From: a virus
Length of the DNA: 33,748 bases
UHGV virus genome: UHGV-0125592
Strand: one strand, 5' to 3'
Under the pieces are notes generated by a model. The model was not told the DNA's origin and did no database searches. It was given only the letters and a program-made list of their open reading frames with translations. Positions 16,723 to 23,338 of this stretch are shown one piece after another. The position numbers and the translations under genes are program-made. Every line of letters starts with the position of its first letter. Positions within the stretch are counted from its first letter, which is position 1.

Positions 16723-17150
16723 TACCAAAACTCCTTTTATCAAAGAGATACCATGATAACCCCATGAATTATTTAGTAAAGCATGATCACAGACACTCAG
16801 TGAATGTCTGCTGTAACGCCTACTCAGTCGAGCTGTAGAACACCATGTTCTTCTGATTCAAAGTATGCAATAAGCATGCTGTATTCGGGGATGATACTAC
16901 CGTCATCAACTCCGCCTTTACATGTTGGTTTGTGGCAATTTACTTTTTATAGTCAAGCATCTGTCACTAAGGCGACATACTTTGAGTGCGCTTTGCTACA
17001 TTGTAAAATTTTCAGCAATGAGGCACATTAGATGTTCAGATGAAACTGTAAGTTCTTGACTCGGGCCGGATGATTAAATCATAACTTTCATTACACTTTG
17101 AGTAATCAATCTCATCCAGCATAGTTAAGCCCTGTTGATAAGGAATGTAT

Positions 17151-17570
17151 ATGGCAATTAAAATCATTGGTGGAAATATTAGTGGTAATGGTGGTGATGG
17201 CATCCATGTTGGGGATGGATTTGATATAGAGGTTATAGGCACCAAAATCACCGATAATCATCGTGATGGAATTCATGTCGCAAGCCCTAATACGAATGTT
17301 AGCATTCAAAATATTGAATGTTTCGGTAATACAAGAGATGGAGTTCATGTTGCTATAACAATGCAAGATTTAGTTAATGCTGGGTTGAAAGAAAATATAC
17401 CACAAGAAGAACTAAACAAGGCACAAAAGGTCATAGTTGAAAACACAAACAAACCACTTATAAAAATAACGTCCGCATTAAAAGGAATAGGATTCTGTCG
17501 CTGGATCACAAAAGGTTCAGAACTAGCAACAATTACGTCTCTTTTAATTCAGCTATTCACAAAAAATTAG
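17151..17570 (+). CDS. Hypothetical low-GC protein with three DGIHV beta-helix-like repeats
   Basis: 139 aa from ATG 17151 (AAGGA 6 nt upstream); repeats GDGIHVGDG / RDGIHVASPNTN / RDGVHVAIT; AT-rich relative to flanking phage genes; opposite strand to the late operon. Confidence 0.45.
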   Translation: MAIKIIGGNISGNGGDGIHVGDGFDIEVIGTKITDNHRDGIHVASPNTNVSIQNIECFGNTRDGVHVAITMQDLVNAGLKENIPQEELNKAQKVIVENTNKPLIKITSALKGIGFCRWITKGSELATITSLLIQLFTKN

Positions 17571-17639
17571 CCTTATTTATAATTAATATCATTGACATTC
17601 AAATAAACTCAAGAATAACACCTATTTATTCTACAGGAC

Positions 17640-17673
17640 GCTTACCACTCTCTAACAGTGGTAAGCTTTCCCC
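17640..17673 (+). terminator. Hairpin terminator after the low-GC repeat protein gene
   Basis: Perfect 10-bp stem GCTTACCACT / AGTGGTAAGC with 7-nt loop followed by TTT. Confidence 0.35.
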
Positions 17674-17839
17674 ACAGAGAATAATCATTCTTTATGTGAT
17701 GCATACATGTTTTTCTATCAAGAGTACGTTCTGCAGATTAGCTTGCTCCTCACCAGAAGCAAAGCCTGTTCTCTTAATGGGAAATCAGGAGCAAGTTATA
17801 ACCATACTATTACATTTCAGTTGCTGCGCCTTATCCGTA

Positions 17840-18364
17840 CTACTTTTTCATTTGTTCAGTCACTCTGTTATTTGACTCTCTCACCGAGTCGTAAACTCGC
17901 TCACACGTTATTCCAGCTCGGTAGCTTTCGTCAGATCGCTCAGCATAATATCGAGCTTCTTCTGCAAGGCGTCCGAGCATGTCGGCGAGCACTGCGGCGG
18001 CGGATCCGGCTGTTTTGCTTCTGACGGCAGCGGCAAGATCTGAGGTGTGCTTTGCGGCGTCCAAGCGGGCGGCAAGCTTTGTTGCTTCGGTGCGCAACTG
18101 GCTAACAGTGGCAGACAGGCCAGCAGCAGTGGCAGCAGATTTAGCGGCTTGTGCTTGTGCATCTTTTACAGCCTCATCACGGGCAATTATGCGCCCTTGC
18201 TCAATCATGCGGGCGGCGGTCTGCGCGTTCGCTGTTTGCGATGATTCCGCGCTGTCACGGTCAGCCCACTTCTTTTCCCAGCCGTGATTGCTCCATACGT
18301 TTCCGGCGATGAATGCGACAGCCACTAGCATCAAAATAACAATGAACTGATAGTGCAGGTTCAC
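17840..18364 (-). CDS. Rz-like i-spanin
   Basis: N-terminal TM helix ([15 protein letters not shown]) then Ala/Gln-rich coiled coil; follows the endolysin; probable GTG start overlapping the endolysin stop (GTGA). Confidence 0.7.
17908..18162 (-). CDS. Rz1-like o-spanin lipoprotein embedded in Rz
   Basis: Lies entirely within Rz in another frame; signal peptide with lipobox LLASC, Pro-rich mature part. Confidence 0.6.
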
Positions 18365-18909
18365 TTGTCTATCCCCCAGCACGTCAGCCCGCTTTCCTGG
18401 TCTCGTCGTTCAACCTGTCCGTAGCAGCCGTTTTTCTGGCCTTTGGTCAGACGGCAATCGCGGCCACCGTCTTTAATCCACCAGCGGATCGCTTCACAAG
18501 CTCCTTTTCGGTCGCCAGCATTGATCCGTTTGTAGAAAGTGGAAGGGAAGCATTTTCCGGGACCGATGTTATAAGGGCAGAAAGAAGCGATACCCGCTTT
18601 CTGAGGTTCACTCAGCGGGACTTGGATATTTTTCTCTACCCACGCCAGCGCCTTGTCGCGTTCTATGGCGTTCACCTGGGCGCATTTCTCAGCAGACAGT
18701 TTCATGCTCTGAACTACTGGCTTACCGTCAACCATCGTGGCGCCACGGCAAATGGTCCACACTCCGCCGCCGTCGCGATATGCCGTCAGGCTGTTACCCT
18801 CTTTCTCATCCAGAAACTGATCGAGAATTACAGGTGCGGAAGCCCCAGCAAGAATCAAACCAACTACCGCTGCACTCAGTTTATTCTTCAGCTTTGGTGA
18901 CATTGCCAT
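18361..18909 (-). CDS. SAR endolysin (GH24 T4-type lysozyme, RrrD-like)
   Basis: Catalytic E-x8-D-x5-T motif ([16 protein letters not shown]); N-terminal weakly hydrophobic signal-anchor-release segment ([17 protein letters not shown]); GGAGG ribosome-binding site. Confidence 0.85.
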
Positions 18910-19159
18910 TAAGCCGGTCCTCCCTTTCCTTTTTCCTGTAATACCAGTTCACTGCACAGGTGATAACCGTGCATGCGATACCGACAATAATTGCCCAGTC
19001 GCTCAGGCTTAACCCTGCAATTCTGTCGGCCAACATCCAGGACACCTCTTTTGCTGTTTTAGCTGTTTCGGCGTATGCCTTCGCTGATACACCGCAGCCG
19101 GTCAGCGTGGTGCCTGTTCCATATGAAAGTCTGCTGTAAATGGTGCTCATTCTGGTCAT
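18881..19159 (-). CDS. Pinholin-type holin (S21-like) with dual start
   Basis: MTRMSTIY... has two Met codons separated by Thr-Arg (antiholin/holin pattern); Gly/Thr-rich TMD1, hydrophobic TMD2, charged C-terminus; GGAGGTGAGG ribosome-binding site; overlaps the endolysin start. Confidence 0.7.
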   Translation of the reverse strand: MTRMSTIYSRLSYGTGTTLTGCGVSAKAYAETAKTAKEVSWMLADRIAGLSLSDWAIIVGIACTVITCAVNWYYRKKEREDRLNGNVTKAEE

Positions 19160-19263: not shown

Positions 19264-19294
19264 GAAATAGAAAAGGCCACGCAAATGCGCAGCC
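19264..19294 (-). terminator. Intrinsic terminator (tR'-like), copy A, upstream of the holin
   Basis: Minus-strand transcript GGCUGCGC-AUUU-GCGUGGCC forms an 8-bp stem using two G-U wobble pairs, followed by UUUUCUAUUU; forms only in the minus-strand transcript. Confidence 0.55.
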
Positions 19295-19352
19295 TGTAAC
19301 CAGAAATCAATATTGTCTTTACATCAATTTTTCTTAAGGTTAAATTCTTCTG

Positions 19353-19428
19353 ACAAGTTGATGAAAGACAACTTGAATATTAGCTATTTGTTCTCTGTTA
19401 TGCCCGCAACCCAATGCGGGCTTTTTTT
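19353..19428 (+). ncRNA. Candidate small RNA (about 75 nt) antisense to the late transcript
   Basis: Promoter-like TTTACA (19318-19323), 17-bp spacer, TAAATT (19341-19346); internal hairpin CAAGTTG-ATGAAAGA-CAACTTG; strong terminator GCCCGCA-ACCCAA-TGCGGGC + TTTTTTT (19402-19428); no ORF. Confidence 0.4.
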
Positions 19429-19551
19429 CGCCCTGCTAAAAGTTCCACCGTTGTGAGCCTTTTTGCTATGCAATAATGGATGCGTGGTGCCGGGTGTCTC
19501 CCGGTGATCCTTTGGCTGACAACCCATGCCTCACGAACATTTCACAACGGG

Positions 19552-19581
19552 ATATAGAAAAGGCCGTGCATTTGCATAGCC
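19552..19581 (-). terminator. Intrinsic terminator, copy B (imperfect duplicate of copy A)
   Basis: Minus-strand GGCUAUGC-AAAU-GCACGGCC hairpin (one mismatch) followed by UUUUCUAUAU; shares the flanking motif ATAGAAAAGGCC...AGCC(C)TGAAA with copy A. Confidence 0.45.
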
Positions 19582-19602
19582 CTGAAAGATGTTTATGCTT
19601 TA

Positions 19603-20100
19603 TTAATTCGCTGGAATATCTGGCATGGCGCGATCCATAGAAGAGCTAATTAACGCCTTAATAGCGTTGCATACCTGATAAAATCCACCCAGCTGAGATG
19701 AGACAGAAAAACGGGAGACGTCGTCTCCTGAGCCTACTTCAGCATAAAATGATGAGTTCTCATACCAGAGTGAGATGCTTACGCCCTGCCTGTAGCCACC
19801 TGTTAGCGGAGAATCATCAAGAGTGGTTGCAATCACGAAATTCAAGTGGTAACGGCTGTCCATATTGAGTTGGGGGATTAAGACAGGAAAGAACTTCCCC
19901 TCCTCCTCCCAAATACCAATGTCCACATAAGGCCATCTTGTTCCGTCAGAACCAGTCCACTCACGAGATGTAAGATCAAGAGAACCTGAATACTCTCGTA
20001 GTAGTTCGCTCGCCTTCTCCTGAAGTTTATCCTGTAACTTCCATTGCGCCTCGACCAGTTTAGTGCGTTTTTCTTTCAGATCCTTAAATGTTAATTCCAT
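19603..20100 (-). CDS. Hypothetical protein (cargo, low GC)
   Basis: 165 aa from ATG 20100 with GGAG ribosome-binding site (MELTFKDLKEKRTKLVEAQWKLQ...); no recognisable motifs; divergent from the adjacent plus-strand operon. Confidence 0.5.
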   Translation of the reverse strand: MELTFKDLKEKRTKLVEAQWKLQDKLQEKASELLREYSGSLDLTSREWTGSDGTRWPYVDIGIWEEEGKFFPVLIPQLNMDSRYHLNFVIATTLDDSPLTGGYRQGVSISLWYENSSFYAEVGSGDDVSRFSVSSQLGGFYQVCNAIKALISSSMDRAMPDIPAN

Positions 20101-20183
20101 GCCACTCTCCAGACAACTTTTGAAAGGAATCTGCATAGTAACTCACCCTGAAAGCACATGGTTATATTTCACTTACACTGAGT

Positions 20184-20220
20184 GCGAAAAACAAAAACCC
20201 CACCATTTCTGGCAGGGCTT
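20184..20220 (-). terminator. Possible terminator upstream of the 165-aa gene
   Basis: Minus strand: GC-rich imperfect hairpin (CCCTGCC...GGTGGGG) followed by TTTTTGTTTTT. Confidence 0.3.
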
Positions 20221-20349
20221 CGATTGTTAAGCTGTGTGTCGAAGTGACCACTCTTAACACGTTACATTACTTTTTGCGGACCGCAATAATGTTTTTTATT
20301 ATTAAAACAGGTATTTTATGGAAAAAAATCAAACCATAGCGAGCAAATA

Positions 20350-21219
20350 GTGACCAATACTACTTCTTTTCAGATCTTCTATGATGCAGAAGACACTGAA
20401 TTGGCACAGCATAAAATTGATGCAAAAACACTTAGCATTTCCATAGGTTCTATGGCTGATTTAATTTCAGCCGCCGATAAACGGCTTAACGACGGTCAAC
20501 AAACTGTGAAGTTGATGGTGACAAACCCGGCCGAGGCTGGCTCTCTCGGCGTATCCTATACGATGATGGAACTTGTCCCACATGCAATCAATGTTGCGAA
20601 AGTGATCGGATTGACAGGGTTAGCCGGCGCAGCAATTGGTGCACCTGCATTATCGTTAATTCGACAGTTGGGAAGTAAGAAAGTCATTTCCATCACGAAA
20701 CGAGCAGGTACAAACCAATCCGTTCTTGAGCTCGAAGGTGAAGAGATTGTTTGTCATGATTCTGTAGCAAAGCTAGTGACTGATCCAGAAATTAGGAATG
20801 CTTTAGTGAACGTTGTGCGCGCACCTTTAGACGGGAAAGAAGGCGCAGTGTTCAAAGTTCTGAATGAAGACGGTATCGAAGTCGTCCGCCTGGAAGGTGA
20901 AGAAACTGAGGAAATAAAACCACTTCCCAGGGGCACTTTGCTGGAAAAAGAAGAATCAGTGGAAGAAGTAAACGTAAGATTCGTCCAAATAAACTTTGAA
21001 GGAACAAAAGGTTGGAGGATTGAGTACCTCGGAGAGGAACATGCAGTTTCGTTTGAGGATCAACTTTTTATACATCAAGTCCAAAATGGGATCGTTAGTT
21101 TCACCAAAGAAGATTTGTTTGTCGTTGACCTCAAAACAACAAAAACTTTCACTGCACGTAATGCTTCAACCAAGTATGCTATAACCAAAGTTAAGCGAAA
21201 ACGCCCTGCTGAGGCTTGA
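20350..21219 (+). CDS. Hypothetical membrane-anchored protein, first gene of a three-gene cargo operon
   Basis: 289-aa ORF (GTG start at 20350; first in-frame ATG at residue 35); central hydrophobic segment INVAKVIGLTGLAGAAIGAPALSLI, acidic C-terminal half; low GC; preceded by a 10-codon mini-ORF whose stop overlaps the GTG. Confidence 0.5.
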   Translation: MTNTTSFQIFYDAEDTELAQHKIDAKTLSISIGSMADLISAADKRLNDGQQTVKLMVTNPAEAGSLGVSYTMMELVPHAINVAKVIGLTGLAGAAIGAPALSLIRQLGSKKVISITKRAGTNQSVLELEGEEIVCHDSVAKLVTDPEIRNALVNVVRAPLDGKEGAVFKVLNEDGIEVVRLEGEETEEIKPLPRGTLLEKEESVEEVNVRFVQINFEGTKGWRIEYLGEEHAVSFEDQLFIHQVQNGIVSFTKEDLFVVDLKTTKTFTARNASTKYAITKVKRKRPAEA

Positions 21220-21275
21220 TTAACGTGGCATTAAACTTGCAGATAGCGCAACTGATCTTCTGGATAGGAGTGATT

Positions 21276-21485
21276 ATGATCATTCCTACCTTTAGTCGTT
21301 TCTGCTATTCGGCATCTGCTTTGCTATGGCGTCGATTGTTTCCTACCAGGACCTTTGAGTTCCGGTATCACGATGAAGATACTGGTACAACTAAAACACT
21401 CATAGTTAAGGTGCCAAGAAAAAACGGCAAAATGCTTACCAGCCTTATTGATGAGGCTATTTCGGAGAATTCAAAACCAAAATGA
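21276..21485 (+). CDS. Small hypothetical protein, second gene of the cargo operon
   Basis: ATG at 21276 with GGAG 8 nt upstream; 69 aa; an upstream TTG start would add a hydrophobic N-terminus; stop overlaps the next start (ATGA). Confidence 0.4.
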   Translation: MIIPTFSRFCYSASALLWRRLFPTRTFEFRYHDEDTGTTKTLIVKVPRKNGKMLTSLIDEAISENSKPK

Positions 21486-21904
21486 GTTCTCAAAGTAAAG
21501 GTTTAAGTACTGGAAAAGCGACACTTTCCACTGGTGGTTGGGGAGCAATACTCAGCGTTTTAGTTGGTGCAGTTCTTACAGACCCCAACAGCGTGTGGAG
21601 GACGGTTGCTTATGCCCTTGTGCCTGGTGTTGCTGCTGTCCTTACCTACGTGATGAATTGGTTCATTTCTAGGCATGGGTTTGAATCACCAGAAGATGCA
21701 GCTAAACGAGCGAAGTGTAAACGAGATTTAGCTGAGATCGAAAAACAGCTAAGCTCAGAGCATTTAACCCCTGAAATTGAAGCCAGGCTGATGCAGGCAA
21801 AGGCCAAGACAATTGAAATACTCGTTTCTATTGGCAGCGACTCTATCCTTGAAGCCTCATCACGTTCGAGCCAACTACCAGATACTGCCGGGCCTCAAGG
21901 CTAA
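21482..21904 (+). CDS. Two-TM membrane protein with C-terminal coiled coil, third gene of the cargo operon
   Basis: 140 aa; two hydrophobic helices (GGWGAILSVLVGAVL and VAYALVPGVAAVLTYVMNWFI) then a charged helical tail; translationally coupled to the preceding gene. Confidence 0.5.
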   Translation: MSSQSKGLSTGKATLSTGGWGAILSVLVGAVLTDPNSVWRTVAYALVPGVAAVLTYVMNWFISRHGFESPEDAAKRAKCKRDLAEIEKQLSSEHLTPEIEARLMQAKAKTIEILVSIGSDSILEASSRSSQLPDTAGPQG

Positions 21905-21926
21905 CCGGCAGTCTTGATTTTAACAA

Positions 21927-22295
21927 TCAATCATCCATGTCAAGTCGAATATCAAGCATAGCCAAACATCCGTCTATAAATCCTTCTGCCATCTGTATCT
22001 CGATGCGTATCAATTTCTCATCTTTTTTACGCGCTTTCGCAATCTTCCTCTTAGATATTCCGTATAGGTAGTGGGCAACAAGAAGTGAATGCTCATATGG
22101 TTTTCGGTTTTTCAATCGCGCCAGGCACCCTTCGATGATCAGCGCATCATCGTCAGTACAAGACGGTCGGGAGCTACCTATTTGCGGCAACAGCCCTTTA
22201 AATCCTGCAGCTATAGGAGAATAGTCCACGCCAGAACTATCACTGGCAGCCCACCCGCCCCATCTTTCGAGTAACATTTGAATATCACGCATCAC
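21927..22295 (-). CDS. Late-gene antiterminator Q (small Q family, QuuD-like)
   Basis: 122 aa; MMRDIQMLLERWGGWAA...IAAGFKGLLP...SRPSCTDDDALIIEGCLARL...AEGFIDGCLAMLDIRLDMDD matches the conserved pattern of the DLP12/phage-82-type small Q proteins. Confidence 0.75.
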   Translation of the reverse strand: MMRDIQMLLERWGGWAASDSSGVDYSPIAAGFKGLLPQIGSSRPSCTDDDALIIEGCLARLKNRKPYEHSLLVAHYLYGISKRKIAKARKKDEKLIRIEIQMAEGFIDGCLAMLDIRLDMDD

Positions 22296-22309: not shown

Positions 22310-23338
22310 TTAAGCTTTCGCAATTACGCCGATCGCCAGCGCCCGATCCATAAAACGCAGTAGCAGCTCAAGCTGCGTACCATGCTTCTGCTCGAATGCT
22401 GGTACATCGGCGTGTAACTCGTCGTGGCACTCTCTGCACAGAGGGATCACGAAGAGGTCATGGGCTTTTGTTGCTGTACCACCCATACCGTGCCCTACGA
22501 TATGGTGCGGATCATCTGCTGGCCGTCGGCAACACTCACAGGGTTGTGTTTTTACCCAGCGGGTGTAAGTCTCATTTATCCAGCGGCGTCGCTTTGGCCT
22601 GAGCATGAAAGATTCTGGAGATTCCGGATCAACAGAGAGCGTGAGGATCTTCTTCGCCTTCTCCTGCACGAGGCTGGTTGCAGACGCTAAAGGCACAATG
22701 TCGCTTTCCCTCATGACAGAGCGGATGTTCTCATCCGGAAGGCGCAGCCCTTTGTGAGCAACGCTTTCCGGAATAACATCAGCCAGGTCGTTTCTGACCA
22801 TCCACCAGCACAGTTCCGGAAGCGTCAGGATATGCGACTCGGGAAAACCAGAATCACGCCGAATGACTTCCAGAATCCAGGATACCAGGTTTCCTGCCGC
22901 TATACCTGCAAGCTGTTCGGTATGCTGCCCCGACAAAGTGTGATCGCAATGCCAGCACAGGCGAATGCTTCCTGGTGGGTGCCGCATTGTTGTGAAGTTC
23001 TTGTCGTGCCACGTTGAATGTGGCCACTGGCATTCAAACCGATTACTCAGCCATTGCTCAAGGGAAGGAAGCCCGCCGGCACGCTGAATAATCCTCTCAT
23101 TCTCGAAGACCTGACGCATTACCGGATCATCAGCCAGCGGCTGAATGGCTGCCGGAACAGCCCCGGTACTGAATGACGCCATTTCTTCTGGTTCAGGCTC
23201 GAGCAGAACGCGACCACGCATGAAGAGGTGCATCAGCTCCGCACCAGGACGGAACAGCACAATCCCCATACGATGGGCGATCTCGGGGGTAAGCAGAGCT
23301 TTCACGCGACCTGCCCCCTGGCAATGTGTTCTGCCCAC
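22310..23338 (-). CDS. DUF968-like protein (YdfU-like) with C-terminal HNH-like Cys/His cluster
   Basis: 342-aa ORF; C-terminus CECCRRPADDPHHIVGHGMGG...CRECHDELH; start uncertain (internal Met codons at 23269 and 23230 possible). Confidence 0.55.
   Translation of the reverse strand: MGRTHCQGAGRVKALLTPEIAHRMGIVLFRPGAELMHLFMRGRVLLEPEPEEMASFSTGAVPAAIQPLADDPVMRQVFENERIIQRAGGLPSLEQWLSNRFECQWPHSTWHDKNFTTMRHPPGSIRLCWHCDHTLSGQHTEQLAGIAAGNLVSWILEVIRRDSGFPESHILTLPELCWWMVRNDLADVIPESVAHKGLRLPDENIRSVMRESDIVPLASATSLVQEKAKKILTLSVDPESPESFMLRPKRRRWINETYTRWVKTQPCECCRRPADDPHHIVGHGMGGTATKAHDLFVIPLCRECHDELHADVPAFEQKHGTQLELLLRFMDRALAIGVIAKA

Follow-up and report, generated by a model that had tools for sequence, protein, structure and literature searches.

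The Q21/Q933W family (PF06530) is one of three families of Q antiterminators (10.1101/651190). In 933W-type Stx phages, such as Sakai Sp5 with its Q933, PR', StxS leader and tR', the start of the late promoter PR' has been mapped by dRNA-seq and points toward stx and the lysis genes, the promoter is reported to be always active, and 258 nt lie between the PR' start and the 3' end of tR' as determined by Term-seq (PMC7547250). The PR' module of these phages lies at the Q stop codon, and their cargo (tRNAs, stx) follows PR', in the direction of its transcription; at the level of sequence, the annotation of PR' for 933W in PMC6266700 carries no coordinates. In phage 21, the Q binding site lies in the -35/-10 region and is followed by the -10, the start and a terminator (PMC6606751; 10.1101/651190). 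The phage 21 record gives the order as -35, QBE, -10, start, pause element and terminator, with a consensus -35 that begins 6 nt after the Q stop codon, a binding element that is a direct repeat (TGAGCA twice) and the pause TAAGCT at +2 to +7.

In the cryptic prophage DLP12 of E. coli K-12, quuD is followed by nmpC, a convergent porin gene on the opposite strand that is interrupted by IS5, and then by essD-rrrD-rzpD; together these genes form the classical qsr' region. Promoter data for essD were looked up in the literature and none were found. Cargo at conserved positions is familiar from morons and from the defence hotspots of prophages and satellites (lambda bor/lom, stx, P2/P4), where variable cassettes of lower GC content, with a terminator of their own and many known or candidate anti-phage systems, sit between conserved flanks (for the P2/P4 hotspots, Rousset et al. 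2022, as cited in PMC11364771).

The locus described here lies in the viral genome UHGV-0125592, of which the whole stretch of 33,748 nucleotides that was analysed is called the window. We propose that it holds a normal Q-dependent late switch whose two halves have been split by cargo, with a PR' module 1.64 kb from Q on the same strand, and we regard this as very probable. The features on which the argument draws are, in the direction of late transcription:

21927-22295, minus strand: Q antiterminator gene of the Q21/Q933W family (PF06530, E 3.9e-53, full model)
21884-21912, both strands: hairpin common to the convergent Q gene and cargo operon (fold)
21482-21904, plus strand: cargo gene 3, 140 aa, predicted membrane segments, family F4 (ORF list)
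21216-21485, plus strand: cargo gene 2, 89 aa, hydrophobic N-terminus (ORF list)
20350-21219, plus strand: cargo gene 1, 289 aa, candidate defence protein (PADLOC PDC-S42)
20285-20349, both strands: divergent intergenic region (65 bp) that runs from the PR' palindrome to the start codon of cargo gene 1
20276-20284, minus strand: palindrome GCGGTCCGC, candidate Q-binding element, at about -32 to -24 of PR'
20264-20259, minus strand: putative PR' -10 hexamer TAACGT (column conservation)
20248-20258, minus strand: invariant block GTTAAGAGTGG, at -6 to +5, unique in the window
20252, minus strand: predicted PR' start, an A, 7 nt after the -10 (homology)
20184-20221, minus strand: tR' candidate (hairpin 20221-20194), the first intrinsic terminator after PR' (terminator scan, fold)
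19603-20136, minus strand: 177-aa ORF, the second cargo module, which separates tR' from the next terminator (phrog_5091)
19560-19583, minus strand: terminator-like hairpin, copy A, followed by TTTTCTATATC (weak fold, z -1.1)
19274-19295, minus strand: terminator-like hairpin, copy B, followed by TTTCTATTTC (terminator scan; fold z -3.4)
18881-19159, minus strand: holin gene, 92 aa from ATG 19159, the first lysis gene (PF16080/PF04971)

The product of the Q gene in the window falls into one of the three Q families. Its ORF has 122 codons for amino acids, or 121 from the likely start ATG 22292, and the product matches phrog_79 ('anti-termination protein Q-like'). It belongs to the same family as the Q of 933W-type phages (47% identity) and is 52% identical to QuuD of E. 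coli K-12; phage 21 Q is a member of PF06530 as well, and its similarity to the window Q is weak (PDB 6P18/6JNX, E 5.5e-5). Residues S93-H95 of phage 21 Q contact DNA (PMC6606751), and the segment aligned to them is the part in which the window Q and QuuD diverge most. A gap of 22 bp lies between the Q stop codon (21927-21929) and the stop that ends the final plus-strand ORF (21482-21904), which bears out the earlier, sequence-only reading of this DNA that Q converges closely on a plus-strand cargo operon. The hairpin at this junction folds on both strands (-19.1 kcal/mol, z -4.0 on the plus strand; -21.8 kcal/mol, z -3.4 on the minus strand), and we assign it as the terminator of the cargo operon because the T-rich tract follows it on the plus strand only. 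Relatives with other cargo have unrelated GC-rich terminator hairpins at the same place after Q.

The late promoter, which had been called not obvious, can be identified. A putative late-promoter module, unique in the window, occupies 20297-20184 of the minus strand. Its 37-nt motif at 20248-20284 occurs a single time in the window with zero mismatches, and there were 0 matches in 100 shuffles. These positions fit the core of the 933W/QuuD type, in which a palindrome, a spacer, TAnnnT and G(T/A)TAAGAGTGG follow one another at fixed spacing; in the 933W-type phages the same core reads palindrome, 8 nt, TAnnnT and G(T/A)TAAGAGTGG, followed by a hairpin with a T-run, and in DLP12 the module consists of TATGCT, GTTAAGAGTGG and a terminator, about 120 bp before the holin gene. 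The core is thus present in Sp5, VT2phi_272 and DLP12. In the position of the window palindrome GCGGTCCGC, 933W-type phages have TTTACGATCGTAAA and DLP12 has TTTACGTACGTAAA. Among 77 non-redundant relatives the -10 column reads TAnnnT in 76, with the inner three bases free (18 hexamer variants), and the block GTTAAGAGTGG is at least 90% conserved, being identical or nearly so in DLP12 and in Sp5/VT2phi_272. Upstream of the palindrome, the columns 'aaAAA.ca.Ta.c' are kept in the same relatives and correspond in the window to a conserved A-tract and CAnTAn at 20297-20285 of the minus strand (-45 to -33 of PR').

We place the predicted start on the A at 20252 because the 258-nt spacing of Sakai Sp5 lands on the homologous A, from which 257 further nt lead to the last T of the tR' T-run; the Sakai start was matched through this spacing and the shift between record versions (NC_002695.1 and.2), and not by direct coordinate. 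The start site and the promoter activity proposed for the window rest on homology and consensus. The palindrome is a candidate for a Q-binding element that matches its own Q. It stands where a -35 hexamer would be expected, and none is recognisable in the module. Loading of both Q21 and lambda Q needs a -10-like pause element, yet among the relatives no TAnnnT or nAnnnT element is conserved at +1 to +25. Neither the consensus -35 nor the pause of phage 21 was found in the window, and its candidate binding element is a palindrome rather than a direct repeat. The sole second -10-like element is the invariant TGnTAAGAG that straddles the start, with TAAGAG at -4 to +2.

Other placements of the promoter elements were considered and rejected. 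If the -10 lay at module positions 16-21, with TAAGAG as a pause like that of phage 21, the corresponding column should be -10-like across relatives, and it is not. TGnTAAGAG as an extended -10 is without the T at -7 and conflicts with the 258-nt spacing. A third possibility, in which the promoter precedes the palindrome and TAnnnT serves as pause, fails because neither a -10 nor a -35 is conserved there and that DNA is either cargo-specific or codes for Q. Separately, there is an inverted repeat, TTAAG...CTTAA, that covaries at one position (the covarying pair was counted by script); its 5' arm lies upstream of the inferred start, a position that the PR' model leaves unexplained.

The first intrinsic terminator downstream of PR' would give a leader of about 60-69 nt, against the published 258 nt from start to tR' in 933W-type phages. 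It consists of a 12-bp stem followed by TTTTTGTTTTT, and the leader folds at -24.2 kcal/mol (z -3.3). Of 74 non-redundant relatives, 61 have a terminator-like hairpin no more than 130 nt past the palindrome, and in 55 it begins at a distance of 51-70 nt. In Sakai Sp5, a terminator-like hairpin at about +32 to +57 is evidently read through and is not called tR'; by analogy, the first hairpin of the window may be leaky. Next comes the 177-aa ORF, which shares its strand with Q and the lysis genes, matches phrog_5091 (unknown function, E 1.8e-55) and is present or absent among prophages with an identical Q-cargo unit. The hairpin beyond it, copy A, is a sequence repeat of copy B. Copy B stands directly upstream of the holin leader, its equivalent directly follows tR' in several relatives (L004, L088, L114 and others), and homology with phages mEp237 and HK225 begins there; the holin DNA is 91-93% identical to the holins of these two phages. 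From the predicted PR' start to the holin is 1,093 nt, and holin, lysozyme and Rz all come after the intrinsic terminator. The earlier reading put three terminators in the path of antisense transcription; the three minus-strand hairpins (20221-20194, 19583-19560 and 19295-19274) are all downstream of PR' in the sense direction, and an antisense path through the operon contains none of them. Across the whole window there was no Rfam match at the gathering threshold and no tRNA by scan, and 19296-19600 has a sub-threshold STnc100-like match.

On the plus strand, the cargo operon spans 20350-21904 (1.55 kb) and consists of three intact genes, of which the second overlaps the first, and the third the second, by 4 bases. 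The earlier estimate of 2.7 kb of opposed cargo between Q and the lysis genes holds as a distance, the holin ATG at 19159 being about 2.7 kb away, but only these 1.55 kb are opposed. GC content is 38-47% across 20050-21999, against 52-58% in the genes upstream of Q. The 289-aa protein matches the candidate defence system PDC-S42 (PDLC05015) over its full length (E 2.7e-31, residues 4-287 on profile positions 3-292 of 302), belongs to phrog_3243 (unknown function) and has no Pfam match. It also matches NCBIfam NF053583, 'LAPAL motif-containing putative phage structural protein' (203 bits); PDC entries are candidate defence systems, whereas NCBIfam names the family a putative phage structural protein. 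Genes 2 and 3 had no family match in Pfam, PADLOC, PHROG or NCBIfam, and the three genes are found together, as F4-F6-F5, in 11 related loci. As a putative transcription unit of its own, the operon has the terminator hairpin at 21884-21912 and, by consensus match, a plus-strand promoter-like site, GTTACA-18-AATAAT, at 20261-20290. Its promoter must lie within 20285-20349 or overlap PR'.

In a survey biased toward close relatives of the window Q, a strict pattern found the module in 99 of 166 loci and a relaxed one in 131 of 164; each of these loci has it a single time, and without exception it lies downstream of Q, in the orientation of Q and with fixed internal spacing. The distances are bimodal: among the 131 module-bearing loci, 12 have the module adjacent to Q, 119 have it displaced by 360-3018 bp and none falls between. 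That most are displaced is valid for this neighbourhood of Q only, because the sampling favours close relatives. About 98 loci, with a Q that is 60-100% identical, carry the palindrome GCGGTCCGC, each of them a single time, downstream of Q and in its orientation; in clades with Q 51-62% identical it is replaced by CGCGTACGC, GCGCTACGC, GCGTTACGC or TCGTAACGA, in DLP12 by ACGTACGT and in 933W-type phages by ACGATCGT, with the downstream block unchanged throughout. In other words, the palindrome varies with the clade of Q, and the -10 and +1 block stay constant.

The alignment with relatives that lack the cargo, which the sequence-only reading had put forward as a check, supports a displaced PR'. 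In cargo-free loci (L006, which is PhiR5_1, L113, L017, L020, L021 and L030) the module lies 12-20 bp after the Q stop codon or overlaps it, and it likewise adjoins the truncated Q of L003, whereas the window has 1,642 bp between the Q stop and the beginning of the module. Where cargo is present, different and unrelated gene sets occupy the space between the same conserved flanks, as at other moron or cargo hotspots. They comprise 27 protein families in at least 18 architectures, many of the genes are known or candidate anti-phage defence genes, and the cassettes include PDC-S42, KAP NTPase/PDC-S20, TIR-TM, NYN, HNH, methyl-directed REase-like and others. Unlike other hotspots, the site is exactly the junction between the end of Q and PR', and the orientation of the cargo is nearly uniform, with 145 of 150 ORFs opposed to Q. 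The close relatives L089 and L090 share the Q-cargo unit of the window at 97-99%. A megablast search with the region against phages and E. coli genomes matched only the flanks; one of these matches (H49) covers 20194-20303 beside a truncated Q. DLP12 has the same split layout, its module lying past nmpC, a porin gene where the window has an operon of defence candidates, and in 933W-type phages the cargo lies downstream of PR' and in its sense, whereas that of the window is opposed and upstream.

The alternative that fares best is that the prophage is defective, the separation of Q and PR' being a product of decay that left the lysis genes outside Q control. DLP12, with the same layout, is cryptic. 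However, the ORFs of the window cassette are all intact, the layout recurs with intact genes in the 119 displaced loci and across the full range of cargo types, and the gaps cluster in two sizes rather than being scattered. The split layout also exists in a deposited complete phage genome, because vB_EcoS-733R5 (Q 89% identical), named as a virion isolate, has the order Q, two opposite-strand genes, module and holin. We therefore consider decay improbable. It is less probable still that the conserved module is a promoter or operator of the cargo and not a late promoter. The module always abuts the 5' end of opposite-strand cargo, and the plus-strand promoter-like site overlaps it; but loci without cargo have the module too, oriented alike with respect to Q and the lysis genes, as do loci in which the cargo is co-oriented with Q (L143, L119, L146). 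It is shared with Stx phages in which the mapped start faces the lysis genes, and a terminator comes after it on the Q strand.

The sequence-only reading had offered two other sites. One was a PR' directly downstream of Q (about 21880-21926), from which late transcripts would cross the entire plus-strand operon in antisense. PR' has this position in textbooks and in phage 21, and the hairpin after Q, for lack of a U-run on the minus strand, would let these transcripts pass. However, that strong hairpin fills the 22-bp gap and extends into its flanks, no promoter module or promoter-like site was found there, and relatives that differ in cargo show unrelated sequences over the first 70 nt past the Q stop, while the conserved module lies elsewhere, once per locus. 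We give this arrangement, and with it antisense late transcription, very little credence. The other, a displaced PR'/qut at 19450-19550, was right in that the promoter is displaced past the cargo, and this segment lies at a plausible leader distance upstream of the hairpin 19295-19274 and the holin, but the module is at 20184-20297, with PR' at 20252-20284, about 750 bp away, the minus strand of 19450-19550 has neither the module nor a -10/-35 match, and 19296-19600 is missing from L089/L090 and from the phage and E. coli collections (the near-identical L087 has it), which makes the site just as hard to credit.

With a normal, split late switch as the preferred reading, events at this locus would be as follows. 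Q would be made from the early operon, and its target would be the PR' module further along the same strand. Without Q, transcripts from PR' would stop at 20221-20194 or at the further hairpins 19583-19560 and 19295-19274. Once Q is loaded at PR', RNA polymerase would pass all three hairpins together with the co-oriented 177-aa ORF, and the antiterminated polymerase would continue into the holin, lysozyme, Rz and terminase genes. The plus-strand operon would occupy a recombination hotspot that extends from the Q stop codon to the PR' A-tract. It is convergent with Q, with which it would share the terminator hairpin, and divergent from PR'. The claim that the cargo is silenced during lytic growth under either of the suggested arrangements does not hold on this model: because PR' is directed away from the operon, late transcripts would never cross it, and the silencing inference fails since late transcription leaves the operon rather than crossing it. 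The only transcription that could cross the cargo is early transcription reading through past Q. Late transcription would avoid the operon, which could therefore be expressed independently in the lysogen.

We hypothesize further, as a composite that is possible but that we would not call probable as a whole, that the Q-stop/PR' junction is a dedicated, orientation-locked hotspot for defence cassettes in the 933W/QuuD-like branch; that the cassette promoter would stand back-to-back with PR', the cassette terminator doubling as the end of the early operon; that Q would recognise the palindrome, implying a symmetric dimer and not the direct repeats of phage 21; and that Q might load without a classical downstream pause element. 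The literature searched gave no description of this junction as a cargo site. The mechanism is ordinary; it is the layout that is recurrent and for which no earlier description was found.

For annotation, these observations mean that a position next to Q cannot be taken for granted for the late promoter of this Q subfamily, and that a motif made of the clade-specific palindrome, 11 nt, TAnnnT and G(T/A)TAAGAGTGG finds PR' in more than 130 loci, DLP12 included. The junction also provides a narrow site, with bounds of about 20 bp on each side, from which defence candidates can be harvested, such as the three-gene operon of the window and the families that have no database match. It is an old idea that Q acts preferentially in cis, and the observation that 0.4-3 kb can separate the Q gene from its predicted target bears on it. 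The candidate palindromic Q-binding element and the missing pause element pose testable questions, and the cargo operon of the window would lie outside the path of late transcription.

The late genes of this lambdoid prophage lie on the minus strand; in descending coordinates towards the terminase genes, the order is as follows:

22310-23338, minus: DUF968/HNH gene (ORF and family annotation)
21927-22295, minus: Q antiterminator, 122 aa (Pfam)
20350-21904, plus: three overlapping ORFs of 289, 89 and 140 aa (ORF list)
20264-20259, minus: predicted -10 element of PR' (homology with Sakai)
20252, minus: predicted PR' start (homology with Sakai)
19603-20136, minus: 177-aa ORF, phrog_5091, function not assigned (ORF list)
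19583-19560, minus: terminator-like hairpin, first copy, then TTTTCTAT
19295-19274, minus: terminator-like hairpin, second copy, then TTTTCTAT
ATG 19159 to 18881, minus: holin
18361-18909, minus: lysozyme
17840-18382, minus: Rz/Rz1

Beyond Rz/Rz1, a low-GC stretch (16900-17800, 32-38%) precedes the small terminase gene and the other terminase genes. It contains an opposite-strand ORF (17145-17570, plus, 141 aa) of repetitive, beta-helix-like sequence, whose 139-aa equivalent in a near-identical prophage gives a weak PF13229 match, and it looks like a second opposite-strand cargo site.

The window Q covers the whole of Pfam model PF06530 (E 3.9e-53), named the Q21/Q933W family by Yin et al. (10.1101/651190), shares 52% identity with QuuD of DLP12, and weakly matches the phage 21 Q chains in 6P18 and 6JNX (E 5.5e-5). 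Yin et al. (10.1101/651190) give the order of the canonical cassette as Q gene, PR', sigma-dependent pause element, terminator. The sequence-only reading had offered a PR' adjoining Q as one arrangement, but a promoter scan of the window found no promoter-like site there. The 22 bp that it had correctly counted between the Q stop codon (21927-21929) and the stop of the 140-aa ORF (21904) belong to a strong hairpin (21884-21912) that carries its T-rich tail only on the plus strand and is the terminator of the plus-strand operon. Because the minus strand lacks a U-run, this shared hairpin would be an inefficient stop for minus-strand transcripts. The distance of ~2.7 kb from Q to the holin start also holds, but the opposite orientation applies to only 1.55 kb of it and not to the whole; the 177-aa ORF runs in the direction of the late genes, and ~440 bp without a long ORF separate it from holin.

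Although PR' had been called not obvious, a unique conserved module is present beyond the cargo. By megablast, window positions 20194-20303 match sequence adjoining a truncated Q-family gene in E. coli MLI104K1, and the same sequence stands 3' of a different opposite-strand gene in E. coli C3728, past two opposite-strand genes in phage vB_EcoS-733R5, and straight after the Q stop in phage PhiR5_1. The fact that cargo-free PhiR5_1 has the module directly after Q bears out the second proposed arrangement, in which cargo separates Q from a displaced PR'. We compared 160 fetched loci coding for relatives of the window Q. The motif GCGGTCCGC-N16-TGTTAAGAGTGG, whose spacing never varies, occurs once per locus, always 3' of Q and in the same orientation, in 99/166 loci, which are nearly all those with a Q at least 64% identical; the window has it only at 20248-20284 (minus strand), and 100 shuffles gave 0 matches. 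By column conservation, the consensus of 77 non-redundant copies is aaAAA.ca.Ta.c GCGGTCCGCA ..tt.t..t. TA.t.T GtTAAGAGTGGT.aCTtcG.CaC.., and its hexamer column reads TAnnnT in 76 of the 77 (18 variants), as is characteristic of a sigma-70 -10 element. In most copies a terminator-like T-run hairpin starts 51-70 nt past the palindrome; in 61/74 it starts within 130 nt.

Studied phages anchor these elements. In phage 21 (curated record OL657228), the PR' cassette begins 6 nt past the Q stop and consists of a -35 (TTGACA), a QBE (ATTGAGCA plus AATGAGCA), a -10, the start, a pause element (TAAGCT at +2..+7) and a terminator. Directly after Q, the 933W-type Stx phages (VT2phi_272, Sakai Sp5) carry TTTACGATCGTAAA, then 8 nt, TATCAT, GATAAGAGTGG and a hairpin: the core is the same as in the window, but the palindrome differs. 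In Sakai, Sy et al. (PMC7547250) placed the PR' start (dRNA-seq) and the tR' 3' end (Term-seq) 258 nt apart; their coordinates on NC_002695.1 carry a uniform 142-nt offset from the version read here. Counting +257 nt from the A that lies 7 nt after TATCAT leads to the last T of the tR' T-run, and this fit supports TAnnnT as the predicted -10 and the A of AAG-A-GTGG as the predicted +1. Sakai Sp5 also has a hairpin plus seven T (AACCCGCCGATGCGCGGGTTTTTTT, positions about 82-108 of the compared locus) at about +32..+57, well ahead of the published tR', and may make a very short PR' RNA as well. Since this hairpin does not block the 258-nt RNA, the window's first hairpin after PR' may, by analogy, be leaky too. 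DLP12 of E. coli K-12 shares the window's core (TTTACGTACGTAAA..TATGCT GTTAAGAGTGG.. terminator) in a module ~120 bp ahead of essD, with the opposite-strand nmpC between quuD and the module (MG1655, about 577194-577280), where RefSeq record NC_000913.3 annotates no feature.

The invariant TGnTAAGAG straddles the predicted start, and no conserved -10-like pause element was found at +1..+25 among the relatives' modules. The base two positions past the -10 (20257) covaries with one ~25 nt downstream on the minus strand (about 20228): among 65 distinct relatives, T..A occurs 49 times, A..T 7, A..A 2 and T..T 1 (Fisher p 8e-7, uncorrected for phylogeny). These positions belong to an inverted repeat, (T/A)TAAG ... 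CTTA(A/T), whose 5' arm at -5..-1 lies upstream of the predicted start and outside the predicted PR' transcript. The covariation could come from base pairing of the RNA in read-through transcripts or from symmetry of a DNA site.

Relaxing the pattern of the constant half made the module detectable in 131/164 loci, and the sequence of nine bases at the site of the palindrome follows the Q clade.

Palindrome and associated Q (identity to window Q) or phage
GCGGTCCGC and one-mismatch variants: 60-100%
CGCGTACGC: 51-62%
GCGCTACGC: 55-58%
GCGTTACGC: 60-61%
TCGTAACGA: 52-53%
ACGTACGT: DLP12
ACGATCGT: 933W type

The palindrome's position, about -32..-24, agrees with a QBE situated between the -35 and -10 elements (PMC6606751). 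Phage 21 Q contacts DNA through S93-H95 (PMC6606751), residues whose aligned counterparts in the window Q, S81-R83, begin the segment that diverges most from QuuD. We therefore regard the palindrome as a candidate Q-binding element.

The distance from Q stop to module is bimodal under the relaxed pattern: <40 bp in 12 loci and 360-3018 bp in 119 (median 1,487 bp), with none between; PhiR5_1 and a further locus (L003) are also <40 bp, but the relaxed pattern missed them and they are not among the 12. In the GCGGTCCGC clade, the 92 loci with a gap of at least 300 bp contain 150 cargo ORFs (minimum length 70 aa), which fall into 27 families and make up at least 18 architectures; 145/150 are opposite to Q. 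The window's three-gene type (families F4-F6-F5, F4 including the 140-aa gene) recurs in 11 loci, its members reaching down to a Q identity of about 66%. Its 289-aa protein matches PADLOC PDC-S42 over its full length (E 2.7e-31), and the NCBIfam name of the family is 'LAPAL motif-containing putative phage structural protein'. Among the matches of other cargo proteins are KAP NTPase/PDC-S20 (E 1e-175), TIR-TM (E 3.5e-56), PDC-S49, NYN, the N-terminus of an Aga-type REase, a type II methyl-directed REase domain, and an HNH domain resembling that in PDC-M68A and SAVED-HNH effectors; family searches gave no match for several families. Every architecture has a GC-rich hairpin within about 45 nt of the Q stop, of unrelated sequence, and GC is 38-47% over the cargo vs 52-58% in genes upstream of Q. 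The identical 289-aa protein and the same Q adjoin three different lysis cassettes, with or without the 177-aa ORF, which argues that the Q-cargo-PR' unit moves as a block within the mosaic. A 10-codon plus-strand upstream ORF (20319-20349; ATG 20319, TAG 20347-20349) stops right where the 289-aa gene begins with its GTG (20350); it may reflect translational coupling or a wrong annotated start.

Downstream, folding of the predicted leader (20252 to about 20186) gives a small hairpin at its 5' end and a terminator (-24.2 kcal/mol, z -3.3). Several relatives (among them L004, L088 and L114) have one copy of the repeated hairpin, directly after tR', indicating that the window has two further insertions between tR' and holin. 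The hairpin copies bracket a 264-bp segment (19296-19559) without counterpart in related loci L089 or L090, which suggests an insertion with hairpin duplication, or recombination at the hairpin; from 19295-19274 down through holin, identity to phages mEp237 and HK225 is 91-93%. In the near-identical prophage L088 (8040-8720), the PR' module is followed by a holin fragment, by the leader 3' half plus tR' once again, and by the 177-aa ORF. Judged from this order, it is a mosaic joint inside the conserved leader, and the leader thus appears to act as a recombination linker.

Two RNA-like features also lie here. An sRNA-like unit on the plus strand, antisense to the late transcript (19318-19428; -21.1 kcal/mol, z -2.5), combines a promoter-like TTTACA-17-TAAATT with a 7-bp hairpin at 19354-19375 and, at 19402-19421, a strong terminator followed by seven T, with only weak sub-threshold Rfam matches (RprA 25 bits, AgvB 20 bits). 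On the minus strand, 19430-19669, which takes in the first hairpin copy and the 3' terminus of the 177-aa ORF, gives a full-length sub-threshold match to STnc100 (RF02076; 31.2 bits vs gathering score 47, E 3e-5 in a 341-nt search).

The switch belongs to the known Q/PR' kind, with the promoter core of 933W-type phages; what differs is that Q is split from PR' by a cargo site, a split already present in long-sequenced DLP12. In the incomplete literature searched, we found no account of the Q stop/PR' junction as a site where cargo or defence genes recur with biased orientation. The window shares its layout with vB_EcoS-733R5, a deposited phage genome whose name presents it as a virion isolate. 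We favour a standard Q switch acting over a distance: Q, a product of the early operon, would bind at PR' to an element 1.64 kb from its own gene and would make terminator-resistant the polymerase that starts at about 20252. On its way to holin, this polymerase would have to pass three terminator-like structures, each of them in sense orientation. As the plus-strand operon and PR' point away from each other, late transcripts would not cross the operon, contrary to the antisense late transcription through the cargo that had been envisaged, and only early read-through past Q could give antisense phage transcription of this operon.
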